The notes: generated by a model not told the origin, from the letters alone. A stretch of 20,613 nucleotides of DNA from a virus (IMGVR_UViG_3300038443_000757:1-20613); one strand, 5' to 3'. Counted from the stretch's first letter, positions 1-18,169 are shown. A program made the numbers and translations.

Positions 1-8
1 TTGCGGAA

Positions 9-24
9 TGTTTCACGTGGAACA
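9..24. other. parS: parS-like site (Spo0J/ParB box)
   Basis: TGTTTCACGTGGAACA, the reverse complement of TGTTCCACGTGAAACA; lies between module core and RBS. Confidence 0.85.
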
Positions 25-55
25 TTCTAGCCTAAAAATAGAGGATGGATGAAAA

Positions 56-268
56 ATGATAATCAATAATAAACTGCTTAAAGCGTTAGATAATGCGGCT
101 ATTGAATATAATGTCGATTGGAACGCCGTTCATACGCCATTCGGAATTGTTTACGACATGTCTGATTCTTTTACAGGCAAAGAGCGCTATGAATTCGAAA
201 ATGGTTACACTTGCTTAACAGTCGAAAGTGTAGTTAAAGGATTGGAAGAAATGGCCGCTGATTTTTAG
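56..268 (+). CDS. Hypothetical protein, 70 aa, acidic
   Basis: RBS AGGATGGATGA then ATG; module hairpin overlaps the stop. Confidence 0.85.
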   Translation: MIINNKLLKALDNAAIEYNVDWNAVHTPFGIVYDMSDSFTGKERYEFENGYTCLTVESVVKGLEEMAADF

Positions 269-314
269 CGGCTTGTGTTGCGTGACCACTAAACAGCTAA
301 AGGATGGATGACAA

Positions 315-476
315 ATGACGTATCAAGTAGCAGTATGGGAAATCGGCAATAAATATAGTGGACAATGGATAACTGTACATAATGTGAAAAGCGAAAAAAG
401 TGCTCGTTCTACTGTTCGTCTTTCATATCCGCCGGACAAATACAAACAAGGCAAAGTAAAACAAGTAAACAGTTAA
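315..476 (+). CDS. Hypothetical protein, 53 aa, basic (MTYQVAVWEIGNKYSGQW...)
   Basis: Read by hand; RBS at 301-311, ATG 315, TAA 474-476. Confidence 0.8.
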   Translation: MTYQVAVWEIGNKYSGQWITVHNVKSEKSARSTVRLSYPPDKYKQGKVKQVNS

Positions 477-483
477 ATAAAAA

Positions 484-499
484 TGTTTCACGTGGAACA
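484..499. other. parS: parS-like site
   Basis: TGTTTCACGTGGAACA; its left half also forms the module hairpin with CGTGAAAC at 504-511. Confidence 0.85.
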
Positions 500-553
500 A
501 TCGCGTGAAACGTGTTGCGGCACTGCCGACAAAACTTAAAGGATGGATGAACA

Positions 554-820
554 ATGAGACTTACAAAAGAGGAAATGAAAGAACAACCTAGCAAGCCTTA
601 TGCACTTTGCGCAACTTCGTATCATGCTAAAATCGAAGTTTGGACTATTAACCATTTAGACTTTGATATCATCACTGCATCTATTGACAGCGGAGATATT
701 CGCAAATTTAAAATTCAAGAGGACAAAGAAGAACGTCAATATTTCACGATTCAAGGCAGGCGCGTATATTTGGATGAATGCGTTAAATATGGTTCGCCAT
801 GGCTTGCCGCTATTGAATAA
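554..820 (+). CDS. Hypothetical protein, 88 aa
   Basis: ORF track; module RBS at 540-550. Confidence 0.85.
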   Translation: MRLTKEEMKEQPSKPYALCATSYHAKIEVWTINHLDFDIITASIDSGDIRKFKIQEDKEERQYFTIQGRRVYLDECVKYGSPWLAAIE

Positions 821-890
821 CCTTAATAAGCTACGCCTAAACAGCGTAGCGTGTTGCGGTACCACTAAACAATAGAGGATGGATGATAAA

Positions 891-1121
891 ATGACACAAT
901 TTACAATGGAACAGCTTAAACAGAAAAACGCGTATGTAAAAATGGATACGGGTATTGGTTTTCCTGTCTACTTTACACGAACGCAAGCAGGAACATGGAA
1001 GCATAGCAAATTTGGTTATGAAATGTCATGCGGCGATTTACTGGATAGCATGAACAGCGGATTGTATAGCGCTGAACTATTGATTGCTAAAGACTTCGAT
1101 AATGACTATGCCGCATTTTAA
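891..1121 (+). CDS. Hypothetical protein, 76 aa
   Basis: ORF track 879..1121, start moved to the ATG after the RBS. Confidence 0.85.
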   Translation: MTQFTMEQLKQKNAYVKMDTGIGFPVYFTRTQAGTWKHSKFGYEMSCGDLLDSMNSGLYSAELLIAKDFDNDYAAF

Positions 1122-1168
1122 TGCGGCTTGTGTTGCGGTACCACTAAACAATAGAGGATGGATGAACA

Positions 1169-1369
1169 ATGTATGTAGTAGAATGCGAAGCTTTTATAAA
1201 TCGTGAACAAGAGGCATACGAAATGTCAAATGGAGGACGCATTTATGATATTTTATATTTCGTTGCTGTTAATGGTAGTCATGTCGTTAGTTCGATGCAA
1301 GAGGTATCAAAAGTAATAGATTTACTTTGTGAGGCTGGTTATGTTGTTAATATAAGCCGTTTTTCTTAA
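1169..1369 (+). CDS. Hypothetical protein, 66 aa
   Basis: ORF track; module RBS at 1155-1165. Confidence 0.85.
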   Translation: MYVVECEAFINREQEAYEMSNGGRIYDILYFVAVNGSHVVSSMQEVSKVIDLLCEAGYVVNISRFS

Positions 1370-1412
1370 ACAGGTTGCCCACTATTGATATAGTGGGCAG
1401 TGTTGCGGAAAA

Positions 1413-1428
1413 TGTTTCACGTGAAACA
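1413..1428. other. parS: parS-like site
   Basis: Perfect palindrome TGTTTCACGTGAAACA between core (1400) and RBS. Confidence 0.88.
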
Positions 1429-1460
1429 TTTCTAGCCTAAACAGAACAGGAATGATGAAC

Positions 1461-1841
1461 ATGGCAGTAACGACACGTAAAGCATTCAAGGAACAAGTAC
1501 AAGAACATATTTTATACATTATGTCAGATGAAGAAACAAATGACGTTAAAGAACAATTACAAAACGTTGTAGACGGTTTCAATAACTGGTACGATGCATA
1601 TGAAAAGAAACAGAATCCTAACAGATGGGCGGCTATGGCTGATTGGTTCATGGGCTTGCCTTCTGAAATTAGCGTTGAATATCGTCACTATGCAATTAGC
1701 GCACTTTTGCAACAATGGTTTGAAAATTGCGGCGAAGAATACAAGGAACGCGAAGGTAATGAAGAACAAACGTTTTATAATTCCTTGATTATTCGTGAAT
1801 TCCTTGTATTGTGCCGCAAATATGGTATTAATGCTTATTAA
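1461..1841 (+). CDS. Hypothetical protein, 126 aa, phage-type (DWFMGLPS motif)
   Basis: ORF track 1452..1841; RBS AGGAATGATGA at 1448-1458. Confidence 0.85.
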   Translation: MAVTTRKAFKEQVQEHILYIMSDEETNDVKEQLQNVVDGFNNWYDAYEKKQNPNRWAAMADWFMGLPSEISVEYRHYAISALLQQWFENCGEEYKEREGNEEQTFYNSLIIREFLVLCRKYGINAY

Positions 1842-1915
1842 AATTGTAAGGCCCGCCTAAACAGCGGGCAGTGTAGCGGACATACCGCAATAACATAAAA
1901 GGAATGATGAATAGT

Positions 1916-2131
1916 ATGACTAAAGTAGAAGCGGAAACAATGTTTAAAATGGAAATACTGCCGGGGCTTATTCGCGGTTTGGAATCTAATGGAATTATTG
2001 ATAAACCAGCACGTCGCATGGCATGGAATAACTTTGTGCAGGCATTATATGAAGACGGCGACATAACAGAAAAGCAATGTTATTCATGGGGCCATCCTGT
2101 ATGGCTTGAAACATGTTCCCCAAAAGGCTAA
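1916..2131 (+). CDS. Hypothetical protein, 71 aa (AWNNF...DGDITEKQ...W motif, reminiscent of small phage proteins)
   Basis: ORF track 1904..2131; RBS at 1900-1910. Confidence 0.85.
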   Translation: MTKVEAETMFKMEILPGLIRGLESNGIIDKPARRMAWNNFVQALYEDGDITEKQCYSWGHPVWLETCSPKG

Positions 2132-2147
2132 ACAACTAGGCCCAAAT

Positions 2148-2163
2148 TGTTCCACGTGAAACA
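2148..2163. other. parS: parS-like site
   Basis: TGTTCCACGTGAAACA at the centre of the extended inverted repeat 2140-2171. Confidence 0.9.
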
Positions 2164-2213
2164 ATTTGGGCAGTGTCGCGTTACCACTAAAAAATAGAAT
2201 GGATGGATGAACA

Positions 2214-2426
2214 ATGAGCATGAGAAATGAAGCCGTGAGAAGACTGGAAGCATTGCGGGAACGTGGTATTTCTGATACAGAAATATTAGAATACATTCTA
2301 TATCATTATTTAAGCGGCGACGCATCATGCGAAACGCTGGAAGCATTCGCACATTATGAATGTGATTTCTCTTTTGAAGAGGAAGAGGAAACAGAAGAGG
2401 AAACAGAAGAAGAGGAAGAGGATTAA
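2214..2426 (+). CDS. Hypothetical protein, 70 aa, with poly-Glu acidic tail
   Basis: ORF track; ends EEEEETEEETEEEEED. Confidence 0.85.
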   Translation: MSMRNEAVRRLEALRERGISDTEILEYILYHYLSGDASCETLEAFAHYECDFSFEEEEETEEETEEEEED

Positions 2427-2492
2427 AAGACGTGCCCGCCTAAACAGCGGGCCGTGTCGCGTTACCACTAAAACTTAAAGGATGGATGAAAA

Positions 2493-2663
2493 GTGAGATT
2501 ATACGTAGAAGAACAACATGTTGTAAATTCGAATGAGGTAGATTCTTTTATTGAAACAAAAGAGAAAAACGGGTTTACAGTCAAAGACATTTCATATTAC
2601 GTAGTTGACGAAAAAGTTAAAAAGCTTGTCATTATTGAAAAATGGAATAAATCAATTAGTTAA
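2493..2663 (+). CDS. Hypothetical protein, 56 aa (GTG start, MRLYVEEQHVV...)
   Basis: Read by hand; RBS at 2479-2489, TAA 2661-2663. Confidence 0.8.
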   Translation: MRLYVEEQHVVNSNEVDSFIETKEKNGFTVKDISYYVVDEKVKKLVIIEKWNKSIS

Positions 2664-2665
2664 AA

Positions 2666-2681
2666 TGTTTCACGTGGAACA
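2666..2681. other. parS: parS-like site
   Basis: TGTTTCACGTGGAACA; its right half pairs with ATGTTCCA (2689-2696) to form the module hairpin. Confidence 0.85.
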
Positions 2682-2736
2682 TTATCAAATGTTCCATTGT
2701 GTCGCGTTACCACTAAAACTTAAAGGATGGATGAAA

Positions 2737-3024
2737 ATGAAAACAGAATTTATCTATGTTAACGAAACGTCGAAGTTTTGGAAGCACTCATACAAAGTTT
2801 GGTTATCTGAATTTAATTACGTTATTGTTAATGCTGACTATGAACAAGATGCATTAGATTTTGCTATTGATTATGCAGAATCTCAAAATTGGAATGGATT
2901 ATTTTTAACAGAAGAAGAAAGAAAAGAAATAGAAAACGATGGTTTTTTAGATGACTATGTAAGTGGAGGTAATCACGGAAAATATCTTTCATCATTAAAT
3001 GTTACAATCGTTCAATTAGATTGA
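2737..3024 (+). CDS. Hypothetical protein, 95 aa, acidic
   Basis: 3' part of track ORF 2605..3024; start placed after the module RBS at 2724-2734. Confidence 0.85.
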   Translation: MKTEFIYVNETSKFWKHSYKVWLSEFNYVIVNADYEQDALDFAIDYAESQNWNGLFLTEEERKEIENDGFLDDYVSGGNHGKYLSSLNVTIVQLD

Positions 3025-3095
3025 ACCTAAACAGCCGCATAGTATTTATGCGGCTTGTGTTGCGTCATACTCTAAACAGAATAGGAATGATGAAT

Positions 3096-3329
3096 ATGGA
3101 AATTATCAAAAGGAAAACAGTGGAAATTAATAAATATGTGCATGTATCAATTGCCCATCGTAGCGATGGATTATTTGATGTTGCAGTTAAAACAAATTAT
3201 TTCCCTCCATTGACAAAATGGGAAATAGAAGAAAGTGAAGTACCAGCACGGGAAGGCATTTCAAGTATGCAGGTATATGGATATATTGAATACGAAGTTA
3301 AGCCAGCTTATTTATTTGAGAAAATTTAA
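3096..3329 (+). CDS. Hypothetical protein, 77 aa
   Basis: 3' part of track ORF 3021..3329; RBS at 3083-3093. Confidence 0.8.
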   Translation: MEIIKRKTVEINKYVHVSIAHRSDGLFDVAVKTNYFPPLTKWEIEESEVPAREGISSMQVYGYIEYEVKPAYLFEKI

Positions 3330-3340
3330 ACAAAACAAAA

Positions 3341-3356
3341 TGTTTCACGTGGAACA
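3341..3356. other. parS: parS-like site
   Basis: TGTTTCACGTGGAACA, inside the 71-bp repeat shared with 480-550. Confidence 0.85.
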
Positions 3357-3410
3357 ATCGCGTGAAACGTGTTGCGGCACTGCCGACAAAACTTAAAGGA
3401 TGGATGACAA

Positions 3411-3764
3411 ATGCAAGAACAAAAACAACTTATTACAGACGTTGAAGGCTTCGAACATGTAGAAGCGTTTTTAGTGCAAGCAGTGGGGAAACCGCTAAAG
3501 TTGCATATGAAAACATGCATGCCTAACAGCGATGAAACTTTTGTTGTTATTGCTGGCTTCGTTCATTCGTTTGAAATTCAGACATCATGCAATCGCGAAG
3601 GTTTTTGCATTCAATTAAGAAAACGTAACAGCGGATTATTTGACGGTACAGAAAACTTTTACGGCAACTTCGAAAAATTCGAATTGAAAACGTATGGAAT
3701 AAGTAAAGTTTTACGTGTTCTTTATAAAGATAAATCATTCTTTGAAATTGAAGTATTCATGTAA
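3411..3764 (+). CDS. Hypothetical protein, 117 aa
   Basis: ORF track; module RBS upstream. Confidence 0.85.
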   Translation: MQEQKQLITDVEGFEHVEAFLVQAVGKPLKLHMKTCMPNSDETFVVIAGFVHSFEIQTSCNREGFCIQLRKRNSGLFDGTENFYGNFEKFELKTYGISKVLRVLYKDKSFFEIEVFM

Positions 3765-3829
3765 TAATCTTGCCACGCTAAACAGCGTGGCGTGTCGCGT
3801 GACAACTAAAATAGATGGAGTGATGAAAA

Positions 3830-4018
3830 ATGGTTAAAGTTAATGAAATTGAAACTAGCTTTTACGAAGGCAAAGAAGTTAAAATAGTTTGCTTTTCTTG
3901 CCATCATGCAATATCTACACATGAAGTGACATTTGAAAGTGTTGTTAATAAACAGCGTATTCCACTATGTTATGAATGCCTTAAACAACTATTTAAAGAA
4001 ACAGCCGCTAATATATAG
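3830..4018 (+). CDS. Putative zinc-finger protein, 62 aa (CxxC...CxxC)
   Basis: CFSC...CYEC; RBS GGAGTGATGA. Confidence 0.75.
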   Translation: MVKVNEIETSFYEGKEVKIVCFSCHHAISTHEVTFESVVNKQRIPLCYECLKQLFKETAANI

Positions 4019-4070
4019 CGGCTTGTGTCGCGGTAAAACCGCTAAAACAAAAACAAAGGATGGATGACAA

Positions 4071-4499
4071 ATGTCTAAAGTAGAACACTTTCAATCTATT
4101 GTTAAATCTTATGGTGGATTTATTTTAAGCGATGGCACATGCAATCTTCAGCACATATTACCTAAAGCGTATGATTTATTAGAAGGCATGGAAGCTAACG
4201 AAGAATTACGCGCCTCTATCCTTACATGCTTCAACATTGAGGACATGGAATATGTTGAAAGTCATGGCTTGTTCATGTCACAATATCATGGAGAAGCTAC
4301 AATTCAAGAAAGTGCATATGAATCAGCTTCTTATGTTTGGAATGAAGACGTTTATAATTATTTCAACAACATTGCGCCTAGCGGCTATTATTTCGGCAGT
4401 AGTGAAGGCGATGGAGCTTGTATTGGATGGTTTAAAATTGAAGAAGAAGAATGTGAATGTGGAGATTTTGGTTGTAAAGTTTGTGGGGACGATGTTTAA
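4071..4499 (+). CDS. Hypothetical protein, 142 aa, acidic (APSGYYFGSSEGDG motif)
   Basis: ORF track; module RBS upstream. Confidence 0.88.
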   Translation: MSKVEHFQSIVKSYGGFILSDGTCNLQHILPKAYDLLEGMEANEELRASILTCFNIEDMEYVESHGLFMSQYHGEATIQESAYESASYVWNEDVYNYFNNIAPSGYYFGSSEGDGACIGWFKIEEEECECGDFGCKVCGDDV

Positions 4500-4568
4500 A
4501 ACACTAGGCACACTAAACAGTGTGCCGTGTCGCGTTAAACCAAACTAAACAGAATAGGAATGATGACT

Positions 4569-4691
4569 ATGCAAGAATTGAAAAACTATAAGAAAATGGA
4601 TTTAATTATTTTTATTTCTATTATATCTATCCCATTTACATTAGCTTTAATTGCTATCATTTATGCTATCTCATTTTTAGCGGCTAAATAG
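4569..4691 (+). CDS. Small membrane protein, 40 aa
   Basis: Read by hand; hydrophobic run LIIFISIISIPFTLALIAIIYAISFL; RBS at 4556-4566. Confidence 0.75.
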   Translation: MQELKNYKKMDLIIFISIISIPFTLALIAIIYAISFLAAK

Positions 4692-4738
4692 CCGCTTGTG
4701 TCGCGTTACACTCTAAAACAAAAAGGATGGATGAATGA

Positions 4739-5026
4739 ATGATTAAATTGACGCTTGAAGAATTGAAACAGCGTAAAGATAAATGGAAAACGGCTGTTAT
4801 TGTATTCGATCAAAAGAGTTTTGACGGGAATACTTACACACATGAAGAACGTTCTTACAAAGTTTCAAGCGATGCAAAATGGTTCGATGATAGTATGATT
4901 GGCATGTCTCTTATTGGCAACTGCTTGGACGGTATAGATTTAGGCGTTCGCCTTGACTTGTACATGAGATTGCTTCCAAGTGAAGGAACGCGATGGATTG
5001 TAGAATATTGCTACATTGTCGAATAA
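4739..5026 (+). CDS. Hypothetical protein, 95 aa (LDGxDxGVRLD...W-x-VEYCY motif, reminiscent of Bacillota mobile-element proteins)
   Basis: ORF track; module RBS at 4724-4734. Confidence 0.88.
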   Translation: MIKLTLEELKQRKDKWKTAVIVFDQKSFDGNTYTHEERSYKVSSDAKWFDDSMIGMSLIGNCLDGIDLGVRLDLYMRLLPSEGTRWIVEYCYIVE

Positions 5027-5093
5027 AACACAATGCCACGTATATAACGTGGCGTGTCGCGTTACCACTAAACAGTTAAAGGATGGATGAAAA

Positions 5094-5345
5094 ATGAAAT
5101 TGCAAAATGAGCTTCAAAATGTAGTTGATAAAATGGAAGAAATTAAAGAGAAGATTGGAAAACACGCGATAGCATTGAAAGAAAGTGGAAAATTTAAGGA
5201 CTTTGAAACAAGGCTTGCATGGGATTGCTTATATGCAGTAGTTGGAAGCAATACTATTTGTGAATGGTACAAAAAATATGACTGTAACGATAGTCATATT
5301 GAAACATTAGCAAAGAAAGCATTAAAGAAAGTTTATCAAATATAA
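5094..5345 (+). CDS. Hypothetical protein, 83 aa (RLAWD...NDSHIET motif)
   Basis: ORF track; module RBS upstream. Confidence 0.88.
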   Translation: MKLQNELQNVVDKMEEIKEKIGKHAIALKESGKFKDFETRLAWDCLYAVVGSNTICEWYKKYDCNDSHIETLAKKALKKVYQI

Positions 5346-5415
5346 ATAGAATGCCGCATGTTTTACATGCGGCTTGTGTTGCGTCAAACTACAATAACAA
5401 AGGATGGATGATAAA

Positions 5416-5625
5416 ATGATTAAAGTAACAGATAACGCATTAAACAAAGTTGGTCAAAGTGTAGATATTATTGTTCCTGTTTCACTCTTTAACAGAACAA
5501 AGAAAACAGTTAAACGTGTATTACATAAACGTCAAGCATTCGGCATGGATTTACTCTATGTACATTATGACGGTTTAAGTTTATTCGTAACAGAAGGCAA
5601 GAACGAAACATTTGTAATGCTTTAA
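5416..5625 (+). CDS. Hypothetical protein, 69 aa
   Basis: Track ORF 5404..5625, start moved to after the RBS. Confidence 0.85.
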   Translation: MIKVTDNALNKVGQSVDIIVPVSLFNRTKKTVKRVLHKRQAFGMDLLYVHYDGLSLFVTEGKNETFVML

Positions 5626-5639
5626 ATGTTTTATTGGAT

Positions 5640-5655
5640 TGTTTCACGTGAAACA
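5640..5655. other. parS: parS-like site
   Basis: TGTTTCACGTGAAACA inside the perfect 28-bp palindrome TTGGATTGTTTCACGTGAAACAATCCAA (5634-5661). Confidence 0.9.
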
Positions 5656-5704
5656 ATCCAAGTGTTGCGGACATACCGCAAATAACAGTAAGGGAATGAT
5701 GAAT

Positions 5705-5785
5705 ATGGCAAGTATGACAATTGAACAAATTAAACAATTAACGAGTAAAACAGTATGCCGCGCATGTCGCGGCAGTGTTGCGTGA
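5705..5785 (+). pseudogene. 26-codon ORF running into the next module; probable truncated cassette or micro-peptide
   Basis: MASMTIEQIKQLTSKTVCRACRGSVA; its TGA lies just after the core at 5775. Confidence 0.5.
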
Positions 5786-5812
5786 CCATTATAAAATAGA
5801 GGATGGATGAAA

Positions 5813-6061
5813 ATGAAAAACATTAAAACAGCAATAATTAACGTTTACGTTGAAATGGCTGGCAATACAGATGTTGTACTATTTGACAAACAATATTCTA
5901 AAGCTTTCTACATACCAGTAAGAGGACTAGAACACGAAAGCTTAAAAGAGTTAATCGAATTAGAATACTATGACGTTGAAGAAGTTAATGACACTATGAT
6001 TAATGAAATTATTTCCGCTATTAAATCAGTGGCATTACAGTTATCATTTATTGGCGACTAG
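5813..6061 (+). CDS. Hypothetical protein, 82 aa, acidic
   Basis: Track ORF 5807..6061; RBS at 5800-5810. Confidence 0.85.
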   Translation: MKNIKTAIINVYVEMAGNTDVVLFDKQYSKAFYIPVRGLEHESLKELIELEYYDVEEVNDTMINEIISAIKSVALQLSFIGD

Positions 6062-6165
6062 TTTTCTAGTCGCGGCGAAATTACAGATATGAAATAACAC
6101 AAACAGCCGCATGTTTTACATGCGGCTTGTGTCGCGGTACATTAAACAGTAAAGGATAGATGATG

Positions 6166-6309
6166 ATGAAAAAGATTAAAGTAAAACATACTTATACTTG
6201 TGTTGGATGCAAAGAACGAATTACAAGCAACATACCAAATAATACATTATGTTTATGGTGCCGTGCTAAACAGAACAGCAATAAAGAGTTAATGGAGGCT
6301 GTTAAATGA
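6166..6309 (+). CDS. Putative zinc-finger protein, 47 aa (CVGC...CLWC)
   Basis: Read by hand; RBS AGGATAGATGA. Confidence 0.7.
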   Translation: MKKIKVKHTYTCVGCKERITSNIPNNTLCLWCRAKQNSNKELMEAVK

Positions 6310-6395
6310 ATTACAACTATCGTTTAAATCGTAGCTTATTGGTCCTAGCATTCATTAATGGATTATTCTTATTATTCTACAAATTAGCGGCATAA
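6306..6395 (+). CDS. Small hydrophobic peptide, 29 aa
   Basis: Read by hand; GGAGG at 6294-6298; ATGA overlap with the upstream gene; ends inside the module hairpin. Confidence 0.6.
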   Translation: MNYNYRLNRSLLVLAFINGLFLLFYKLAA

Positions 6396-6450
6396 ACAGC
6401 CGCTAGTGTCGTGGTACATACCACAAATAACAGAAAAAGGAATGATTGAT

Positions 6451-6660
6451 ATGCAGAATTGGTATTTCGTTTGTTTTGTAAATGATAGGGTAATTCATGC
6501 CCAACATTTCCATACTGGTTATGAGAATGCACAACAAATTGCAAGCAACATGTATAATTTTGGTATAATTATTGAAGGCGAAACAGTAGAATTTACACGT
6601 GTTGTAGCTATATCAGAACAGCATGAAATTGCATTCGACGTTAGAGGACAAATTGACTAA
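6451..6660 (+). CDS. Hypothetical protein, 69 aa
   Basis: 3' part of track ORF 6406..6660; RBS AGGAATGATTGA. Confidence 0.82.
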   Translation: MQNWYFVCFVNDRVIHAQHFHTGYENAQQIASNMYNFGIIIEGETVEFTRVVAISEQHEIAFDVRGQID

Positions 6661-6722
6661 GCCGCTTATGCGGCTTGTGTCGTGGTACATACCACAAATA
6701 ACAATGAAGGATGGATGATAAA

Positions 6723-6971
6723 ATGAACGCGAAAAGAATTGTAGCATTAGGTGAAGAGGCAAACAAGTTTATTAGAAACATTGACAAGGTTGAAGCGCTG
6801 GAAAACAAAATTTCCGATATACTGGATAAAACGAAAGAAGCGGACTATTACGCTAATGATTTACAGAATTTATATGAAGCACTTACGACATTGCGCGAAG
6901 CAATGCAGGACGTGGACAATGCAATATCAAACATTCATTCCAGTGTTGAAGAGGATGAAGATAATTTGTAA
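6723..6971 (+). CDS. Hypothetical acidic coiled-coil protein, 82 aa
   Basis: Track ORF 6711..6971; heptad-like Leu/Ile pattern. Confidence 0.85.
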   Translation: MNAKRIVALGEEANKFIRNIDKVEALENKISDILDKTKEADYYANDLQNLYEALTTLREAMQDVDNAISNIHSSVEEDEDNL

Positions 6972-7030
6972 GCATAGCGCCTTAATTGGCGCGTGTCGCG
7001 TTACCATTATAAAACAAAGGAATGATGAAT

Positions 7031-7303
7031 ATGTGGCGTATTACTTATGATTGGCTAGACAAGAAAAAGATTAACATTCAATCTGCTAACTTCGATCAAA
7101 AAAAATGGGATGAATTGCCTAAAGAAGAAAAAACAAAAATCAAACTTTATGATGACGATGACAATCTGTATTACGATGGTGAAACGTCTTGGATTAATGC
7201 AGGCGAATCAAAAGCATTTCAGCCGCTTGACTGGGCGGCAGGATATGCAGGATGTACTTACATGAAGTATAAGGACAAAGATGGAGAATGGAAGGTGTTG
7301 TAA
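7031..7303 (+). CDS. Hypothetical protein, 90 aa (LYDDDDxxYYxG...PLD...AGCT motif)
   Basis: Track ORF 7022..7303; RBS upstream. Confidence 0.88.
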   Translation: MWRITYDWLDKKKINIQSANFDQKKWDELPKEEKTKIKLYDDDDNLYYDGETSWINAGESKAFQPLDWAAGYAGCTYMKYKDKDGEWKVL

Positions 7304-7304
7304 A

Positions 7305-7580
7305 ATGGGCAGAAGAAAAGTGGCTTATACAAAAGCAGAATGTCCACATTGTAAAAAATATTTCGGTAGAAATATGCTGGAGTATCATATTAGAGAAAAA
7401 TGTGTAATTGCAAAGAACAAGACTAATGGGTCAAAGGAAAAGATGCTTGCAGACAGATTAGAATATGTAAAAACTGCTACATTCGATGATTTAACATTAA
7501 CAATTGGTGAGATTCAAAAGGCTGGAAGATTAGAAGAATTCCAAGAATATTTTAAAAACATTACTAAACCCGCCGAATAA
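7305..7580 (+). CDS. C2HC-type zinc-finger protein, 91 aa
   Basis: CPHC-x11-H-x4-C; ATG 1 nt after the upstream stop. Confidence 0.75.
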   Translation: MGRRKVAYTKAECPHCKKYFGRNMLEYHIREKCVIAKNKTNGSKEKMLADRLEYVKTATFDDLTLTIGEIQKAGRLEEFQEYFKNITKPAE

Positions 7581-7608
7581 AGCGGGTTTTGTGTTGCGGA
7601 CTTCGCAT

Positions 7609-7624
7609 TGTTCCACGTGGAACA
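7609..7624. other. parS: parS-like site
   Basis: Palindrome TGTTCCACGTGGAACA between core (7591) and RBS. Confidence 0.85.
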
Positions 7625-7653
7625 TTATCAAACAATAGAGGATGGATGATAAA

Positions 7654-8091
7654 ATGAAATTGTTAGCAGATGTAGTAAAACGTGCAGAAGAAAAACAAAA
7701 CGCTGTTAATGCTACACATGTAAGAAAGGAAGAAGTTGAACAACTTTTCCTTTCCATCTGTTACAAGCACATGACAGAATTTAAATCAATCTTTAAAGTT
7801 GTGGAAACAAAAGATGCAATTAATAATAATGACCGCTGTTATGGTGCATTGATTCGCATTGCCGATCGTCCTACTTCATGGAGTAGTGATGGATGGAAAA
7901 TTGCAATTTCTGATACTTACAATAGAAAGACATGGGAAAAGGATGTTAGTTTACGTGTTGGATATAATGCTGGGACGTATGACGGCAAAAAGATTCCATT
8001 CGACTACAATCAAACAGATGTTCAACTTACATTATTGTTTGAAAATGCATTACGCTTGCTTGCTTCAATGAAACTGAATAGAATGATTTAA
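7654..8091 (+). CDS. Hypothetical protein, 145 aa
   Basis: Track ORF 7642..8091, start moved to after the RBS. Confidence 0.87.
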   Translation: MKLLADVVKRAEEKQNAVNATHVRKEEVEQLFLSICYKHMTEFKSIFKVVETKDAINNNDRCYGALIRIADRPTSWSSDGWKIAISDTYNRKTWEKDVSLRVGYNAGTYDGKKIPFDYNQTDVQLTLLFENALRLLASMKLNRMI

Positions 8092-8157
8092 CCTAAACAG
8101 CGGACATTAATTGTCCGCTTGTGTTGCGGTACCATTAAACTTTAGGGGATGATTGAA

Positions 8158-8439
8158 ATGATTATTGTATTCGAATGTGGTATGTCTAAAGGACAAATAG
8201 TTGAAGTTGATTCAGATATTACACGTACTTATTGGCGCTTCGTTGTTAAAATGGAAGACAACAAAGTCTTTGAAGGCGAATCATATTCGACGCCTAAACA
8301 TTGGAGCAATGAACGTGTGGCGAAGGAATTGATTGAATGGGGAATTCATGAGTTGGGCGAAGAAATTGATTATTACGGAATATTCAATCTTAACGATGAA
8401 GATAGTCCAATCATTGATTCAATTCACGTGCTCGCATAA
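8158..8439 (+). CDS. Hypothetical protein, 93 aa, acidic
   Basis: Track ORF 8149..8439; exact start uncertain. Confidence 0.82.
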   Translation: MIIVFECGMSKGQIVEVDSDITRTYWRFVVKMEDNKVFEGESYSTPKHWSNERVAKELIEWGIHELGEEIDYYGIFNLNDEDSPIIDSIHVLA

Positions 8440-8489
8440 TGCGAGCAGTGTCGCGGTATACACAAATACAAAAATAAATGATGATGGAC

Positions 8490-8519
8490 TTGCATAATTC
8501 AACGGGATACGTGTATACT
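8490..8519 (+). promoter_or_regulatory. Possible sigma-A promoter for the helicase
   Basis: TTGCAT-N18-TATACT. Confidence 0.5.
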
Positions 8520-8570
8520 AATAAGAGTTAGACAAATGCAATATAAAACAAGCTAATGGAGATGATGAAG

Positions 8571-10610
8571 ATGGCACGTACACCAAAAAAGGTTGTAGTA
8601 CCAATGAAAGATGAATTACTCAAAGGATTGAATGAATCGCAATTGAAAGCTGTTCTTGCAACGGAAGGTGCAATTCAAATTTGTGCAGTAGCGGGAAGTG
8701 GAAAAACGCGCGTACTTACTACGCGAACAGCGTACATGATTAACGTACTTAACATCATTTCTGATTCAATTGCACTTATGACATTCACTAAAAAAGCCGC
8801 TACTGAAATGGAAGAACGTTTGAAGCCTCTTATTAGTAAAACAGATTTAGAAGCAATGTTTTGTGGCACTTCTCACTCGTTTGGCTATAAAGTATTGGCA
8901 CGTGAATACAAAGCAATGAACCATCCTTTGCAGGACTTTTGCAATCCGAAGCGTGATGCAAAAAATCCCGGTGTTCTTATTGGTAACAGTCAAATGTGGT
9001 TTGCTGAAGAAGTAAAACAGAACTTGCTTAAAAGCTTTATGATTGAAGCAGACGTAAAGAAGGCATTAAAAGATGCACACAACAAAGTGTTGTTAGCAGT
9101 AGTTGGGAATGCAAAGAACAAAGGTATGGATTGCAATCAATTTGAAGCAGAACACGCAATGGATGCCTCTCCTACAATGTGGGCATACATTAACTTTTAC
9201 AAGCAATATGAACAAATGAAATATGCAAGGCTTGCAATTGATGGTGATGATATGCTTTTCCTCACTGTTCGTTTGTTTCGTGAACATCCAGAAATTCTTA
9301 AAAAGTATCAAGGTAAAATTAAGTACATTATGATTGACGAAACACAAGACAACAATCCTACGCAATACGAATTAGCAAAAAAACTTATTCATCCTGAAAA
9401 CAACATTTTTGTTGTTGGTGATGACGATCAATCCATGTATAGCTTTCGTGGCGCTTCGCCTGAATCTTTCGTACAATTTGACAAACTGTTTTCAAATGTT
9501 CAAATGATTGGCTTGGAGCATAATTATCGTAGCCATCCTGAAATTCTGAATGTTGCAAACAAACTAATTGAAAATAACAAATTCAGAATTCAAAAGAAGC
9601 TTATTCCGCATAGTCAAGCAGATGGCAAGGCTGTTTTCTACTCGCACCATAAAAATGAAACAGAAGAAGCAAATGAGGCAGTAGAGGAAATTAAGACGTT
9701 GAAAGAAATTAAAGGCATTGAATACAAAGACATGTTTGTACTTTATCGTACCAATGCTCAAAACAAAGAATTTGAAGATGTTCTTATCTCTAATGGCATT
9801 CCATACGTTATTCATGGCGGTATGTCATTTTATGAGCGCAAAGAAGTAAAAGATATTATGTCATACCTTCGTCTTGTACTGAATACAAGTGACGATGAAG
9901 CATTTGAACGAGTATACAATACTCCAAGCCGCTATGTAGGTAAAGCATACCTTGCTAAATTGAAGGCAGTTAAAGGGTGTTCTTTGTGGGATGCAGTAAA
10001 CAAAGTAAATCTTACGCCTACAGAAAAAACAGCAAGTAACAGCTTCAAAGTATTGGTTAACAGCATGAAACAGCTTATGAAAGAAGATAACAAAACGGCG
10101 GCAGATTTAATTAAATACTTGCTTGAAAATGGTTATGCTGAACATTTGAAAAAGAATGATGATGAAGACGAAGAAGAAAAGGAAAATCCAATCGTTAACA
10201 AAATGATTCACTTTGCAAGCCGTTTTGAAAAGCTTGACAGTCTTGTGAAATATGTTGACATGATGATTAAGAAAAGACGTTCTAGTGTCAATGGCGTTCA
10301 GATGATGTCAGTTCATCGTAGTAAAGGATTAGAGGCTGAAGTTGTTTTTGGAATTGGTGTAAATGAAAATCTTCTTCCGCACTACAAGTCAATTGAAAAG
10401 GAAATTTGTGGTGATGATTCAGCAATTGAAGAGGAAAGAAGACTTGCTTATGTGCTGGTAACACGTGCTAAACAGTTATGCTTCCTCTCTTCAACGTCAA
10501 CATTCAATGGAAAAGATTGTGGTGCTAGTCGATTCATTGAAGAAATGGGATTAGAAGCTGTTATTGATGAAGACAAAGAAATTGAAGAAAATGAGGAAGA
10601 AGCGGTTTAA
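8571..10610 (+). CDS. Superfamily 1A ATP-dependent DNA helicase, UvrD/PcrA/Rep family
   Basis: Motifs AGSGKT (I), TFTKKAA (Ia), DETQD (II), VGDDDQSMYSFRGA (III), NYRS (IV), MSVHRSKGLE (V), EERRLAYVLVTRA (VI); RBS GGAGATGATGA. Confidence 0.95.
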   Translation: MARTPKKVVVPMKDELLKGLNESQLKAVLATEGAIQICAVAGSGKTRVLTTRTAYMINVLNIISDSIALMTFTKKAATEMEERLKPLISKTDLEAMFCGTSHSFGYKVLAREYKAMNHPLQDFCNPKRDAKNPGVLIGNSQMWFAEEVKQNLLKSFMIEADVKKALKDAHNKVLLAVVGNAKNKGMDCNQFEAEHAMDASPTMWAYINFYKQYEQMKYARLAIDGDDMLFLTVRLFREHPEILKKYQGKIKYIMIDETQDNNPTQYELAKKLIHPENNIFVVGDDDQSMYSFRGASPESFVQFDKLFSNVQMIGLEHNYRSHPEILNVANKLIENNKFRIQKKLIPHSQADGKAVFYSHHKNETEEANEAVEEIKTLKEIKGIEYKDMFVLYRTNAQNKEFEDVLISNGIPYVIHGGMSFYERKEVKDIMSYLRLVLNTSDDEAFERVYNTPSRYVGKAYLAKLKAVKGCSLWDAVNKVNLTPTEKTASNSFKVLVNSMKQLMKEDNKTAADLIKYLLENGYAEHLKKNDDEDEEEKENPIVNKMIHFASRFEKLDSLVKYVDMMIKKRRSSVNGVQMMSVHRSKGLEAEVVFGIGVNENLLPHYKSIEKEICGDDSAIEEERRLAYVLVTRAKQLCFLSSTSTFNGKDCGASRFIEEMGLEAVIDEDKEIEENEEEAV

Positions 10611-10945: not shown

Positions 10946-11188
10946 GTGACAACGGCAACGGCTAATGCGACTTGGACAATGGAGAAGTCAATCATTGTAG
11001 GCAATGCATTCCTGTATGATAAGGCTGGCAAACGGCATTATGTCCATTTCCAAATTCCTGATCAAAAGGACAGAATACTAGTCACGACTATCAAAGGGAT
11101 GAAACCTGCAAAGCTTACAAAAGGTGTCATTTCAATGGTCCAAGAACAAGTTAAGGCGTGGACAGGAGAAGAAAAGAAAGTGTATTAA
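10946..11188 (+). CDS. Hypothetical protein, 80 aa (GTG start)
   Basis: ORF track; module RBS. Confidence 0.8.
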   Translation: MTTATANATWTMEKSIIVGNAFLYDKAGKRHYVHFQIPDQKDRILVTTIKGMKPAKLTKGVISMVQEQVKAWTGEEKKVY

Positions 11189-11194
11189 ACAGTG

Positions 11195-11259
11195 AAGAGG
11201 CGCTAACTATGCGCCTCTTTTGTGTCGCGTGACCAAAAAAATTAAGGGAGATGATTAAA
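11195..11259 (+). repeat. Outlying module: hairpin + GTGTCGCG (11222) + RBS
   Basis: AAGAGGCGC/GCGCCTCTT, then TTGTGTCGCGTGACCAAAA. Confidence 0.85.
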
Positions 11260-11796
11260 GTGAAAAAGGGTTTTGTTATTAGCACTGCAATTGCAATGAC
11301 GTTCGCACTGTCTGCTTGTGGTAGCAATGGAAACGTACTAAACAGCAACAAATCTGCATTGCAACAAAATGTAAAGGTTGAACAGGTTGACGCTTCGCTT
11401 ATTACTGCTGATGAACAGAAATATCTTGATGATTTAAGTAGTTACATGAACAATATGCAAACGTCACTGGATGCGCTTAAACAATTGCTTGACAGTCTTA
11501 GTCTTAAAGATACGGAATTGTGGCAAAAGCAATTTTCTGATATTACGGAAGTATACAGATTGTATATTGAAATTCTTAAGGCACAACCTTATCCTGAACG
11601 CCTGAAAGATGTTCACGATGCCTTCCTTGAAGCTACTACTGAACAATATAATGCTATTTTGCTACTGAAAGAAGGGCTTGACAATTCTGATTCTTCTAAA
11701 GTGAGTGAAGGTGTTGAGCACTTGAACAAGGCTAAAGTTGAAATTGAACGTTATGGCCTGTATGTTACAGAATTTAAAACTGGCAAACATAATTAA
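11260..11796 (+). CDS. Putative lipoprotein, 178 aa, alpha-helical
   Basis: MKKGFVISTAIAMTFALSAC: basic N-terminus, hydrophobic core, lipobox LSAC. Confidence 0.85.
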   Translation: MKKGFVISTAIAMTFALSACGSNGNVLNSNKSALQQNVKVEQVDASLITADEQKYLDDLSSYMNNMQTSLDALKQLLDSLSLKDTELWQKQFSDITEVYRLYIEILKAQPYPERLKDVHDAFLEATTEQYNAILLLKEGLDNSDSSKVSEGVEHLNKAKVEIERYGLYVTEFKTGKHN

Positions 11797-11797
11797 T

Positions 11798-11813
11798 TGT
11801 TCTACGTGAAACA
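11798..11813. other. parS: parS-like site, one mismatch
   Basis: TGTTCTACGTGAAACA within TAATTGTT...AACAATTA. Confidence 0.7.
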
Positions 11814-11838: not shown

Positions 11839-11867
11839 TTGACATTATTAGGAATCGGGAATAAAAT
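11839..11867 (+). promoter_or_regulatory. Sigma-A promoter
   Basis: TTGACA-N17-TAAAAT with upstream AT-rich tract. Confidence 0.8.
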
Positions 11868-13769: not shown

Positions 13770-14405
13770 ATGACCTTGAAAATTGTCCAAACTATCAATC
13801 AATCCATTGTTGATTATGTAGCTAAGGCAATCGAAGAATATGAAAAAGGCAGAGAAGGTTACATTGACAACTATGAAAGAGCAAGTATGTATAAACCTTT
13901 GTCAAGCTACTTCACTAAGCAAATTGGTGGTGGGTGTAATGGAGAAGTATTTGAATATGAAGGTTATGCTGTCAAATATTTTTCTGGTGCTGAACAATAT
14001 TGCAATGATGGTAAAATGCTTGAAGCTCTTAATGGTTCTCCGTACTTCCCTACAGTATATGCCCATGATAAAGATTTTATGATTATGGAAAGAATAATTG
14101 GATACTCTTTAGATGATTATTGTGTAGAATACGATAAGTTAAAGAATAAACTTCAAGTTTCTCCAGCTTTTAAATATCACCTAGAGAAAGCGTTTGAGCA
14201 TGCTGACAAAAGAGGCGTGGAGCTTACTGATTTAAAGAAAAGTAATATCATGATAAATGAAAGCGGCCTTCCTGTTATTGTTGATGCTGGAACATTTTAC
14301 CTTAAAGGTGAATTCCCTCCATTTAATATTGGCGGCAAGAGTTATTGCCTTGGATGGTGCAAGGAATTCATGGAGCAATATTGTAAATTTGAACTTGCAG
14401 TCTAA
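13770..14405 (+). CDS. Ser/Thr protein-kinase-like protein, 211 aa
   Basis: IGGGCNGEVF (Gly loop), AVKY, DLKKSNIM (catalytic loop), IVDAG (DFG-equivalent). Confidence 0.88.
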   Translation: MTLKIVQTINQSIVDYVAKAIEEYEKGREGYIDNYERASMYKPLSSYFTKQIGGGCNGEVFEYEGYAVKYFSGAEQYCNDGKMLEALNGSPYFPTVYAHDKDFMIMERIIGYSLDDYCVEYDKLKNKLQVSPAFKYHLEKAFEHADKRGVELTDLKKSNIMINESGLPVIVDAGTFYLKGEFPPFNIGGKSYCLGWCKEFMEQYCKFELAV

Positions 14406-14429
14406 TAACCAATAAGGGAGATAATGACA

Positions 14430-15110
14430 ATGGAACATATTAAAAATGAAACTGTTATTGTCGGCGGCATTAGTAAGATGCTTGTTCAAAAGATTGAAAA
14501 AATGATTGATGAACATGGCATTAATAATCTTAAAAAACTTGGATATGGCGCATTTGGAATTGTTTATGCACTTGGGAATTATGCAATTAAAATTTATGCA
14601 GGTTGTTTCAATGAAGATGAAGAATCTAATTGGGATGCTGTTAACTTGTTAAAGCTTCAAGGAAAAGATTCTCCATTCCTTAAATTATATGCTTATCATC
14701 ATAAAAAATTCATGATTTACGAGCGAGTGATGACAAAAAATTTGAGTACTTATAATTATCAATCTCCAATTTTGCATAGCCTTGATTTGAAGAAGGGTTT
14801 TGCAGAACACTATATGAATTGTTTGAGATATGCATTTGAGAGAGGATTATTGCCTTTCGACGCTAAGACTGACAATGTAATGATCAAGAACGGACTTCCA
14901 GTTATTGTTGATGTCGGCAATTTCTTGGAAAATGGTGGAACTTTCTATGGTGAAACATACTCTTATAAAACTTTTGAAGACTTCTTTGCCGATAGACGTT
15001 TTGACAATAAACTTAATGAGAAGAAAGTTAAGGAATTTTATCAAAATCATGTAAGTAAGGGGTATTCAATTAAGGAAACGCATGACACACTGAAAGAATT
15101 CGTAATGTGA
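14430..15110 (+). CDS. Ser/Thr protein-kinase-like protein, about 226 aa
   Basis: LGYGAFGIVY, AIKIY, DAKTDNVM, IVDVG; alternative start at 14424. Confidence 0.88.
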   Translation: MEHIKNETVIVGGISKMLVQKIEKMIDEHGINNLKKLGYGAFGIVYALGNYAIKIYAGCFNEDEESNWDAVNLLKLQGKDSPFLKLYAYHHKKFMIYERVMTKNLSTYNYQSPILHSLDLKKGFAEHYMNCLRYAFERGLLPFDAKTDNVMIKNGLPVIVDVGNFLENGGTFYGETYSYKTFEDFFADRRFDNKLNEKKVKEFYQNHVSKGYSIKETHDTLKEFVM

Positions 15111-15117
15111 CATAAAT

Positions 15118-15133
15118 TGTTTCACGTGGAACA
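15118..15133. other. parS: parS-like site
   Basis: TGTTTCACGTGGAACA, 7 nt after the kinase stop. Confidence 0.85.
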
Positions 15134-15192
15134 TTTTCCGTTTTGCGTGAAACCGTACATATACCTTATTATATGAAATGGAGAGTGATGGC

Positions 15193-16183: not shown

Positions 16184-17344
16184 ATGGCAAATCAAACAAT
16201 GGTAGCAGTTCCAAGTAATGGTGTTGTAGTAGGCAAGATGAAACGTACCAACTCCACCAAGACAATCAAACAAATCATGAAAAACGAAAGCAAGTATCGC
16301 TTCGATCTGGCAATTCAGCGCAACACTGTATGGAGCGATATTCAAAAATCGATGCTGATCAACTCCATCATGGAAGAGTTTCCAATTCCTCTGGTGTTCA
16401 TTCGTGCTACGGATGACGGATACTTTTGGATGATCGATGGTAAACAGCGCTTCACAACAATCTTCGACTTCATCAATGAAAAATTCCCGCTTCACAAAGA
16501 TACACCTTCCGTAACAGTGGAGCGCGTAATCAAAATTGAAGGAAAAGAAGATCAAACAGCCATTGAAGAAGTTGAAGTTGAAGGTAAGTATTTCTCTGAA
16601 CTTGACAAAGAGCTTCAAGATGACATTCTTGATTATAGCATGTCAATTGTTGAAATCAAGAATATCACTGATGAACAAGTCGAAGAACTTTTCCAGCGTC
16701 TGAATGCTGGTTCGCCTCTCACGGCAATGGAGTTGACACGTGCAATGTCTGGAACGAAGACGATGGAATTCGTTGATAAAATTTCCAAAACGACATTCTT
16801 CTCCGACTTCGCTTCAATTAGCGTAGCTCAACGGAATCGTTACACGGACAATGAGCTTATCATGCAAATTATGATGTTGCTTGCAGGCCGTCAAAGTGAT
16901 CTTGGTTCCAAGGAAATCAAAGAATTTGCCTCTTCGCTTCGTGAAGTTGGTATTGAAACAGTTGTTGATGAAACTCCTTTCTTCGCTACGATTGATTACC
17001 TTGAAAAAGCTTTTGAAACATTTGATGGTACGGATGCTGAAAAGAACCGTAAAATCCGTAACAGAATGCTTAAAAAGGTACACATTCCAGTGTTGTTCTT
17101 GACAGCACAAGAAACAGCGGCGGCTGGCGTTGATCCTGTCGAATTTGGCAAGTGGGCATATCAATTCTTGGTAGTTGACAAGAAGAAAAATGGCACGAAC
17201 GGAGCGACTTACAACAATTACTGCGGAAGCGCTACGCATAAGTGGAATAAGGTTGCTGGACGTATCAAAACGATGCAAGCTTCTGCGCGTGAGACGTTCA
17301 ACCTGACGGCTCAACAAGAAGTGGCGGCAAGCACTGAAGAATAA
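16184..17344 (+). CDS. DUF262-domain protein (ParB/Srx-like fold, as in the GmrSD N-terminus), 386 aa
   Basis: IQRNTVWS, FPIPLVFI, IDGKQRFTTI, LFQRLNAGSPL motifs. Confidence 0.88.
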   Translation: MANQTMVAVPSNGVVVGKMKRTNSTKTIKQIMKNESKYRFDLAIQRNTVWSDIQKSMLINSIMEEFPIPLVFIRATDDGYFWMIDGKQRFTTIFDFINEKFPLHKDTPSVTVERVIKIEGKEDQTAIEEVEVEGKYFSELDKELQDDILDYSMSIVEIKNITDEQVEELFQRLNAGSPLTAMELTRAMSGTKTMEFVDKISKTTFFSDFASISVAQRNRYTDNELIMQIMMLLAGRQSDLGSKEIKEFASSLREVGIETVVDETPFFATIDYLEKAFETFDGTDAEKNRKIRNRMLKKVHIPVLFLTAQETAAAGVDPVEFGKWAYQFLVVDKKKNGTNGATYNNYCGSATHKWNKVAGRIKTMQASARETFNLTAQQEVAASTEE

Positions 17345-18153: not shown

Positions 18154-18169
18154 TGTTCCACGTGAAACA
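18154..18169. other. parS: parS-like site
   Basis: TGTTCCACGTGAAACA, 1 nt after the stop. Confidence 0.9.

Follow-up and report, generated by a model that had tools for sequence, protein, structure and literature searches.

The intercistronic module and its parS sites

The DNA analyzed here, IMGVR_UViG_3300038443_000757:1-20613 (20,613 nucleotides, hereafter the window), comprises bases 1-20613 of a 169,219-bp IMG/VR virus record that is judged complete. Small genes of a plus-strand early array are parted in it by one type of repeated intercistronic module, and perfect copies of parS, the site at which ParB/Spo0J is loaded onto bacterial chromosomes, are built into this module at two defined positions. 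Further copies lie behind genes downstream of the array. The last 182 nt of the record equal its first 182 nt with one mismatch (unique length 169,037 bp), the map is therefore circular or permuted, and a parS copy at 169046 is for the same reason the one at position 9. In the following we describe the module and its parS sites, compare them with those of related contigs and known systems, and discuss which protein might read them and to what end.

The cores of 28 modules are found in the window and two more just upstream of it in the record, which gives 30 modules. Their parts follow in this order: GC-rich hairpin 1, core, optional hairpin 2, A-rich leader and ribosome-binding site (RBS; GGATGGATGA). 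The stem sequence of hairpin 1 is freely variable and the core, GTGTYGCG, stands directly 3' of it. In one relative the core reads TTGTWGCG or ATGTTGCG, which leaves TGT[TCA]G[CT]G as the constant part. The core is followed either by KTACCAYTAAA or by the small hairpin 2, which uses the end of the core as its 5' arm and takes the form GCGG-loop-CCGC or, with a compensatory change, GTGG-loop-CCAC. All of this is packed into intergenic spacers of 60-180 nt, mostly 60-105. The two halves of the module, hairpin on one side and core to RBS on the other, assort independently. For example, modules 2454 and 2699 share 39 identical nucleotides starting at the core and have different hairpins, and modules 5376 and 6129 have the hairpin alone in common.

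Perfect parS (TGTTNCACGTGNAACA) occurs at 11 distinct places of the record, all of them between 168792 and 18169 (18.6 kb); dinucleotide shuffles of the window give a chance expectation of 0.05 matches. The 11 sites agree with TGTTNCACGTGAAACA at all specified positions if either A or G is accepted at position 12. A twelfth, parS-like site at 11798 carries one mismatch, and no other site in the 169 kb has fewer than two (the best elsewhere have 2-3). All 12 fall entirely between genes, which just 12.9% of the positions in the span would permit (P ~2e-11 for uniform placement). The sites are listed in Table 1.

Nine of the 30 modules carry parS. Five sites (484, 2148, 2666, 3341 and 5640) contribute to hairpin 1, and four (168792, 9, 1413 and 7609) lie in the interval between core and RBS, where parS forms the apex of hairpin 2 or stands just behind it. 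The remaining three (11798, 15118 and 18154) are located outside modules, 1-7 nt past a stop codon, in terminator-like hairpins with T-rich tails. An earlier note, made from the sequence of the window, had pointed to parS at 9, 484, 1413, 2148, 2666, 3341, 5640 and 7609, and each of these eight copies is an exact match to TGTTNCACGTGNAACA. The pairings described there are likewise correct. The left half-site at 484 and 3341 (GTTTCACG) pairs with CGTGAAAC at 504-511 and 3361-3368, the right half-site at 2666 (TGGAACAT) pairs with ATGTTCCA at 2689-2696, and sites 2148 and 5640 form the centers of inverted repeats (2140-2171 and 5634-5661). Copies 9, 1413 and 7609 were also rightly placed between core and RBS. 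The earlier note was thus right that the module incorporates parS at two defined positions, and its claim can be extended: each position coincides with a hairpin (hairpin 1, or hairpin 2, which starts in the core), the sites are matched to ordinary module hairpins in stability and register, and the design is repeated in at least two diverged relatives. A possible orientation bias of the asymmetric parS variant (9 versus 3-4 copies) arises partly through duplication and is not significant, and we dropped it.

Table 1. Sites and genes discussed in the text. Positions are those of the window unless the record is named.
Feature	Position	Strand	Remarks
Gene array	168768 of record to ~11250 of window	+	~30 small genes parted by one module type
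parS	168792 of record		just upstream of window; fourth core-to-RBS copy
parS TGTTTCACGTGGAACA	9..24	.	position 2; core (cut by window start) to RBS; GAA/TTC flanks extend palindrome
parS 484-499 with half-site CGTGAAAC 504-511	484..511	+	hairpin 1 abutting core 512; dG -12.6
parS	1413..1428	.	position 2; apex of extended hairpin starting in core 1400; homologous to site-9 module
parS 2148-2163 flanked by GCCCAAAT/ATTTGGGC	2140..2171	+	hairpin 1; dG -17.2
parS 2666-2681, right half paired with ATGTTCCA 2689-2696	2666..2697	+	hairpin 1; core 2699; dG -11.4
parS hairpin, exact duplicate of 484	3341..3368	+	71-nt identical run including core and leader
parS 5640-5655 flanked by TTGGAT/ATCCAA	5634..5661	+	hairpin 1; dG -14.9
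parS	7609..7624	.	position 2; after small hairpin GCGGACTTCGC starting in core 7591; 17 nt before start codon region
parS-like, one mismatch	11798..11813	.	non-module; 1 nt past stop; AAT/ATT extension; T-run, then sigma-A-type promoter 11839-11867
parS 15118-15133 with half-site CGTGAAAC 15146-15153	15118..15153	+	non-module; terminator-like; 7 nt past kinase-like gene; fold of 76-nt segment 15105-15180: dG -19.3
DUF262/GmrSD_N protein, 386 aa	16184..17344	+	inside cluster, between parS 15118 and 18154; N-domain of ParB/Srx NTPase fold
parS	18154..18169	.	non-module; 1 nt past DUF7168 gene stop codon; T-rich tail

Bare parS is a weak hairpin, which folds at -3.4 to -6.3 kcal/mol. In contrast, the five hairpins 1 that are based on parS reach -11.4 to -17.2 kcal/mol (mean -13.7) and are indistinguishable from the 25 ordinary ones (-13.3 +/- 2.3 kcal/mol). 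They end 0-1 nt before the core, in the same register as ordinary hairpins. The missing stability is supplied in two ways, either by complementary flanks on both sides of the palindrome (as at 2148 and 5640) or by an extra half-site as pairing partner for one half of parS (as at 484, 3341 and 2666; outside the array, at 15118). Each site is thus an RNA-level hairpin, as shown by structure and energy. A second constraint, on sequence, is visible in the same letters. Within the perfect sites only consensus positions 5 and 12 vary, which are the N positions of the pattern as written; the 14 specified positions are invariant, whereas stems of ordinary hairpins 1 differ freely. Moreover, sites 2148 and 18154 contain a C-A mismatch in the RNA stem, which is to be expected if the DNA sequence and not the RNA pairing is constrained. 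From this letter-perfect conservation we infer that each site is a protein site at the DNA level as well.

In another scenario there would be no such DNA-level role: the parS palindrome was captured once as a handy hairpin and then spread passively, by duplication of modules and gene conversion. Some copies have surely multiplied in this way, since 484 and 3341 share a 71-nt identical run, homology links the modules of 9 and 1413, and in a related contig (L141, see below) modules 1 and 3 are nearly identical. For the two pairs in the window, the suggestion of the earlier note that the module is simply the vehicle of parS is therefore justified. It does not extend to the rest, where the flanks are unrelated. 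Passive spread is further disfavored by the presence of three different hairpin designs, by the invariance of the 14 specified positions across lineages while ordinary hairpins vary freely, and by both C-A mismatches. Nor would parS be convenient as a hairpin, given how poorly it folds on its own. We consider this scenario the least probable of those discussed here.

Related contigs and turnover of the sites

Relatives were found via exact-protein look-ups, and their contigs come from the same sampling project. A helicase-based locus search of IMG/VR revealed no relative locus, and neither megablast nor blastn found close DNA relatives in the GenBank phage collection. Distances given below are identities to the UvrD-type helicase encoded at 8556-10610 of the window, which is itself 43-48% identical to helicases of SPO1-like Bacillus phages.

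In contigs L125 and L126 (75% identity) the module is present along with four parS, of which two occupy position 2, one makes up hairpin 1 and one follows a stop codon outside the module. The position-2 copies of L125 read GCGGT[parS]CTCCGAC and GCGGAAAT[parS]ATGCCGAC, and parS-free modules have GCGGCACTGCCGAC or GCGGCAATAGCCGAC at this place. L141 (67% identity) contains five parS within 3.4 kb, one directly after every stop codon, and the four that precede a module all build hairpin 1 via the right half. A further contig, L185, was found through its DUF262 protein and has one parS past a stop codon near a DUF7168 gene; it may belong to the L125 or the L141 lineage. More distant contigs, L127/L128, L142 and L143 (53-54%), contain neither core nor parS. 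Contigs of at least two diverged relatives and a fourth contig thus repeat the parS design, and they do so at non-orthologous junctions. The junction 11188/11251 of the window, between genes 10946-11188 and 11251-11796, lacks parS, and the junction of their orthologues in L125 (7008/7102) has it in position 2. Conversely, genes 2493-2663 and 5404-5625 are followed by a parS hairpin in the window and by an ordinary hairpin or none in L125. Gene content and order differ between the relatives, too. Outside this group no perfect parS was found in nine other large Bacillales phages (1.58 Mb in total, including Tsamsa and three other Bacillus siphoviruses of ~165 kb). When IMG/VR was scanned for parS, many unrelated contigs with 1-5 sites but none with the module were among the matches listed, which does not provide an estimate of rarity.

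Sites are thus gained and lost while their density is kept, which suggests selection on number or density rather than control of particular genes. This bears directly on the proposal of the earlier note that ParB loaded at module parS spreads and gates expression or recombination of the array, tying cargo genes to the Spo0J state of the host; translation might be gated in the same manner. It is true that four sites occupy the leader, between core and RBS, and a clamp bound to the DNA there could get in the way of RNA polymerase. There are also precedents: KorB of RK2 and SopB of N15 regulate transcription through their own operators in their replicons, and silencing by N15 SopB even serves as an assay (10.1101/862136). 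Nevertheless, the proposal finds no support in the distribution of the sites. Only nine of the 30 modules carry one, three or four sites are situated outside modules behind unrelated genes, and sites are not kept at orthologous junctions. Since module halves assort independently, a site is not tied to one gene. Spreading of Spo0J is also said to affect expression of neighboring genes barely. We thus regard gating as rather improbable.

As for the module itself, our best guess is that it represents intercistronic punctuation of RNA, in which a 3' hairpin is followed by a conserved leader and a strong Shine-Dalgarno sequence. When modules were examined as terminator-type stem-loops, the hairpin was always there (dG about -13), and the tail UUGUGUYGCG is only partly U-rich. 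No sigma-A promoter (at least 10 of 12 matches) was detected on the plus strand of 1-8450; such promoters are present from 11.8 kb on. The record yielded no match to a phage sigma factor that would read the core as a promoter, and none to a T7-type RNA polymerase, but in the latter search the RNA-polymerase control was silent as well. Searching Rfam with the array and its upstream region returned no family. Module patterns gave single chance matches only in IMG/VR, GTDB genomes and JGI metagenomes, without nearby parS or RBS block. The argument on parS is independent of the RNA role of the module.

Among known elements the module resembles PeSLs of T4-type phages, repeated stem-loop cassettes which flank small non-essential genes in a plastic region where recombination shuffles genes (PMC2839356, PMC4122927). 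Both are composite repeated intergenic motifs with a stem-loop beside small genes, and in our case, too, module halves assort and gene order varies. PeSLs differ in having a strong sigma-70 early promoter, while no sigma-A promoter is detectable in the modules described here. To our knowledge, parS has not been reported from PeSLs.

Several other features of the module and its surroundings deserve mention. The sequence CTAAACAG is another module component, with 14 of its 18 occurrences in the 169-kb record falling in the array. Its copies occupy the hairpin-1 loop, the bases just upstream of hairpin 1 or the core-RBS interval (window 837-844, 1857-1864, 2440-2447, 3027-3034, 3072-3079 and others), and supply hairpins with a T-rich tail on the minus strand, so that many of them score as minus-strand terminators. 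At 5662-5775 of the window two modules stand 113 nt apart around a tiny open reading frame (ATG at 5705); this unit may be a decayed or minimal cassette. AGCGG, the Chi sequence of B. subtilis, occurs 17 and 14 times on the two strands of window 1-10000, versus ~4-5 times per 10 kb elsewhere, because many hairpin-1 stems read AGCCGC...GCGGCT. One may speculate that this enrichment might shield the DNA from AddAB.

The helicase gene has a sigma-A-type promoter of its own after the last module (TTGCAT, 17 nt, TATACT/TATAAT, with an upstream TG). It is present in four of four lineages (window 8448-8556; L125:4289-4400; L141:1240-1368; L127:9211-9365), even in L127, whose module is different. This 170-kb contig (54% helicase identity) has in its region 350-9000 an analogous module with its own RBS block. 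The outer arms of its long hairpin (TTCAGTGA ... TTACTGAAT) are conserved, the inner stem is variable and co-varies, and AAAGGATGATAACACATG comes next. By its sequence, the L127 module looks like a processing site of double-strand RNA.

The phage and candidate readers of the sites

In our view the record represents a large, novel phage that has plasmid-like traits and presumably infects a Bacillus-type host. Its GC content is 35%. It encodes a TubZ-like protein (at 132886 of the record) as well as tyrosine recombinases. Kinship with Tyrovirus was considered and rejected: the TubZ-like gene is real, yet the top phage match of its product (Bacillus phage G) is only 30% identical, and Tsamsa lacks parS. 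Window 13770-14405 and 14424-15110 are adjacent paralogous genes of small kinase-like proteins (34% mutual identity) with weak matches to Pkinase and phage kinase families.

Immediately 5' of the array, 166400-168700 of the record (also L123:1-1180) is AT-rich (23-36% GC) and contains iterons, namely five copies of AGCGCTTTC at 167760-167867, three of AATGTAAGCGCT and GGGGTAT repeats. The iteron stretch is followed by 600 bp of non-coding DNA with 57% GC (168001-168600), and gene orientation flips at this region. It is a candidate for a replication origin, a genome end or a regulatory region. In the first case parS would cluster near the origin, as it does in bacterial chromosomes.

Which protein reads the sites? 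A search of the 169-kb record in six frames gave no match to ParB_N or HTH_ParB. A ParB-like fold was seen in one product only, the DUF262/GmrSD_N protein encoded inside the cluster, whose closest relatives occur in Alicyclobacillus, Brevibacillus and Bacillus phages. Its structure was modeled from an alignment (pLDDT 85; a single-sequence model with pLDDT 36 was discarded). Residues 20-177 of the model align with the ParB/Srx NTPase fold (Z ~8, 92-97 residues). However, the best whole-protein match is BrxU/GmrSD, over ~290 residues, and compared to these proteins it lacks the C-terminal DUF1524 nuclease. Its likeness to ParB, Noc and KorB is confined to the N-terminal NTPase domain and excludes the parS-binding HTH, none of which was detected, with the C-terminal helical part barely probed. 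For these reasons the protein is probably not a hidden ParB. A gene of its kind is also found at this position in relatives, both those that have parS and those that lack it, the latter being L127 and L142.

The reader might still be encoded by the phage, be it the DUF262 protein, by virtue of its location between two parS and its fold, or some small early protein, as most proteins of the array belong to no known family. We find this very unlikely, because a letter-perfect pan-bacterial consensus is best explained by a host protein, and because of the silent domain search and the properties of the DUF262 protein listed above. With no ParB of the phage, no ParB HTH detected in the DUF262 protein and such a gene present in parS-free relatives too, host ParB/Spo0J appears to be the most economical reader of the sites.

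Sites of further host proteins were looked for as well. Spo0A boxes (TGTCGAA) number 20 when the two strands are added up, base composition predicts 20.2, and none of them is at array modules. RacA ram sites are absent from the record, and Noc sites, DnaA boxes and SpoIIIE SRS are not enriched in it.

Proposed recruitment of host ParB and its alternatives

We suggest that the sites are loading sites of host ParB/Spo0J which have been placed where a palindrome is tolerated, recruited for inheritance of phage DNA and selected for number; we hold this to be somewhat more probable than all other explanations together. The lineage has accumulated perfect copies of the chromosomal loading site. Because the spacers are short and the palindrome is 16 bp long, parS survives only where a hairpin already belongs: at the apex or in an arm of hairpin 1, at the apex of hairpin 2 or just behind it, and in stems of terminator-like hairpins right after stop codons. 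Complementary flanks or an extra half-site lift the weak parS stem to the stability of an ordinary module hairpin. As a result, the early end of the genome would become an oriC-like loading domain for host ParB, and possibly SMC. The benefit for inheritance might consist in capture of phage DNA by the forespore or in segregation of a plasmid-like prophage. The TubZ-like gene and the recombinases, as plasmid-like traits, agree with this proposal.

The closest precedent is phage phi29, whose genome contains parS sites and Spo0A boxes and for which Spo0J was implicated in moving phage DNA into the prespore (PMC2731898). Scanned with the same pattern, the 19.3-kb phi29 genome contains the same 16-mer in five places, perfect in four of them and imperfect in one. 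Both phages thus possess several exact copies of the chromosomal consensus and no ParB of their own. Three of the four perfect sites of phi29 are inside genes, and the fourth, at 17243, is placed directly past the stop codon of gene 16 beside a bidirectional terminator, much like our sites outside modules. There are also clear differences. All sites of the present phage are intergenic, embedded in hairpins and part of a repeated module, and their density is 2-3 times higher than in phi29 (~13 times in L141). Spo0A boxes, on which the phi29 strategy also depends, show no enrichment in the present phage. Finally, phi29 is a virulent podovirus with 19 kb of protein-primed DNA, whereas the present phage has 169 kb, a TubZ gene and recombinases.

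Bacterial and plasmid systems offer further comparisons. The B. subtilis chromosome has nine parS sites (PMC12988329). In both B. subtilis and the phage the same 16-bp consensus is used, and a number of sites gather in a single region of the replicon, close to the origin in the former and next to the AT-rich iteron region at the strand-switch point in the latter. Most chromosomal parS of B. subtilis are located within genes and dispersed over hundreds of kilobases. The phage, on the other hand, has 11 in 18.6 kb, all of them intergenic and embedded in hairpins, in a replicon without ParB. Multiple palindromic sites of ParB type that are scattered among genes instead of forming one centromere are also known from RK2 (KorB and its OB sites) and from N15, where SopB has four IR sites (10.1101/862136). 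In these replicons the same question arises, namely how partition is coupled to gene control. Unlike the phage, which uses the host consensus and in which no ParB was found, both N15 and RK2 have a ParB-family protein of their own and private site sequences.

Several points speak against recruitment for inheritance. The molecular role of the module is a best guess, and no sigma-A promoter is detectable in the array. Binding of ParB to the sites is something we infer from their sequence, and a Bacillus-type host is deduced only via distant relatives. The second half of the phi29 strategy was not found, as Spo0A boxes are not enriched and RacA ram sites are absent. The phage has its own TubZ-type segregation gene, hence a second system borrowed from the host is not obviously needed. 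Lastly, a single parS is reportedly enough for a plasmid to be stable in B. subtilis; a set of 11, or a site for each gene as in L141, exceeds the need of partition and would fit a sponge equally well.

Such a sponge is the main rival of our proposal. Upon replication the array would titrate ParB/Spo0J off oriC. This would upset chromosome segregation, SMC loading and Soj control and keep the cell from entering sporulation, all to the advantage of the phage. The 11 perfect sites of the phage outnumber the nine on the whole B. subtilis chromosome, where loss of ParB cuts sporulation 80-200 fold via misregulated ParA (PMC12988329), and 11 sites per phage copy could thus act as a sponge. The position of the sites in an early region of small genes, the usual seat of takeover functions, the single site per gene in L141 and the turnover of sites at kept density suit a dosage device as well. 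On the other hand, the TubZ gene and recombinases suggest a temperate, plasmid-like life, in which harming host segregation would be costly. We also know of no phage that uses parS as a decoy. The sponge is therefore unlikely in our view, but sequence alone cannot separate it from recruitment for inheritance.

A related idea, to which we likewise assign a small probability, is that the parS array forms an active interface with host ParB and not a passive handle. In that case ParB-CTP clamps would be loaded at nearly every intercistronic hairpin. Bulk uptake of ParB might then lead to a state resembling a spo0J null, with sporulation blocked and origin segregation deranged. Alternatively, the array might work as a dosage-sensitive switch of early transcription, through which the phage would read the ParB/Soj state of its host. 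The nuclease-less DUF262 protein might cap or co-opt host clamps.

Irrespective of the purpose they serve, the sites have a practical consequence: terminator-like hairpins in phage genomes can hide protein-binding sites, and their annotation calls for caution. Since parS and hairpin can be separated by scrambling either of them alone, the array also offers a handle on recruitment of ParB at the DNA level versus function at the RNA level. The design rule that emerges is that the palindrome is written into RNA hairpins which the intercistronic module needs anyway. Until now, borrowing of the host partition protein via parS had been worked out for a single phage, phi29. The lineage described here suggests that this strategy also exists in large phages with plasmid-like traits, and at a far higher density of sites.

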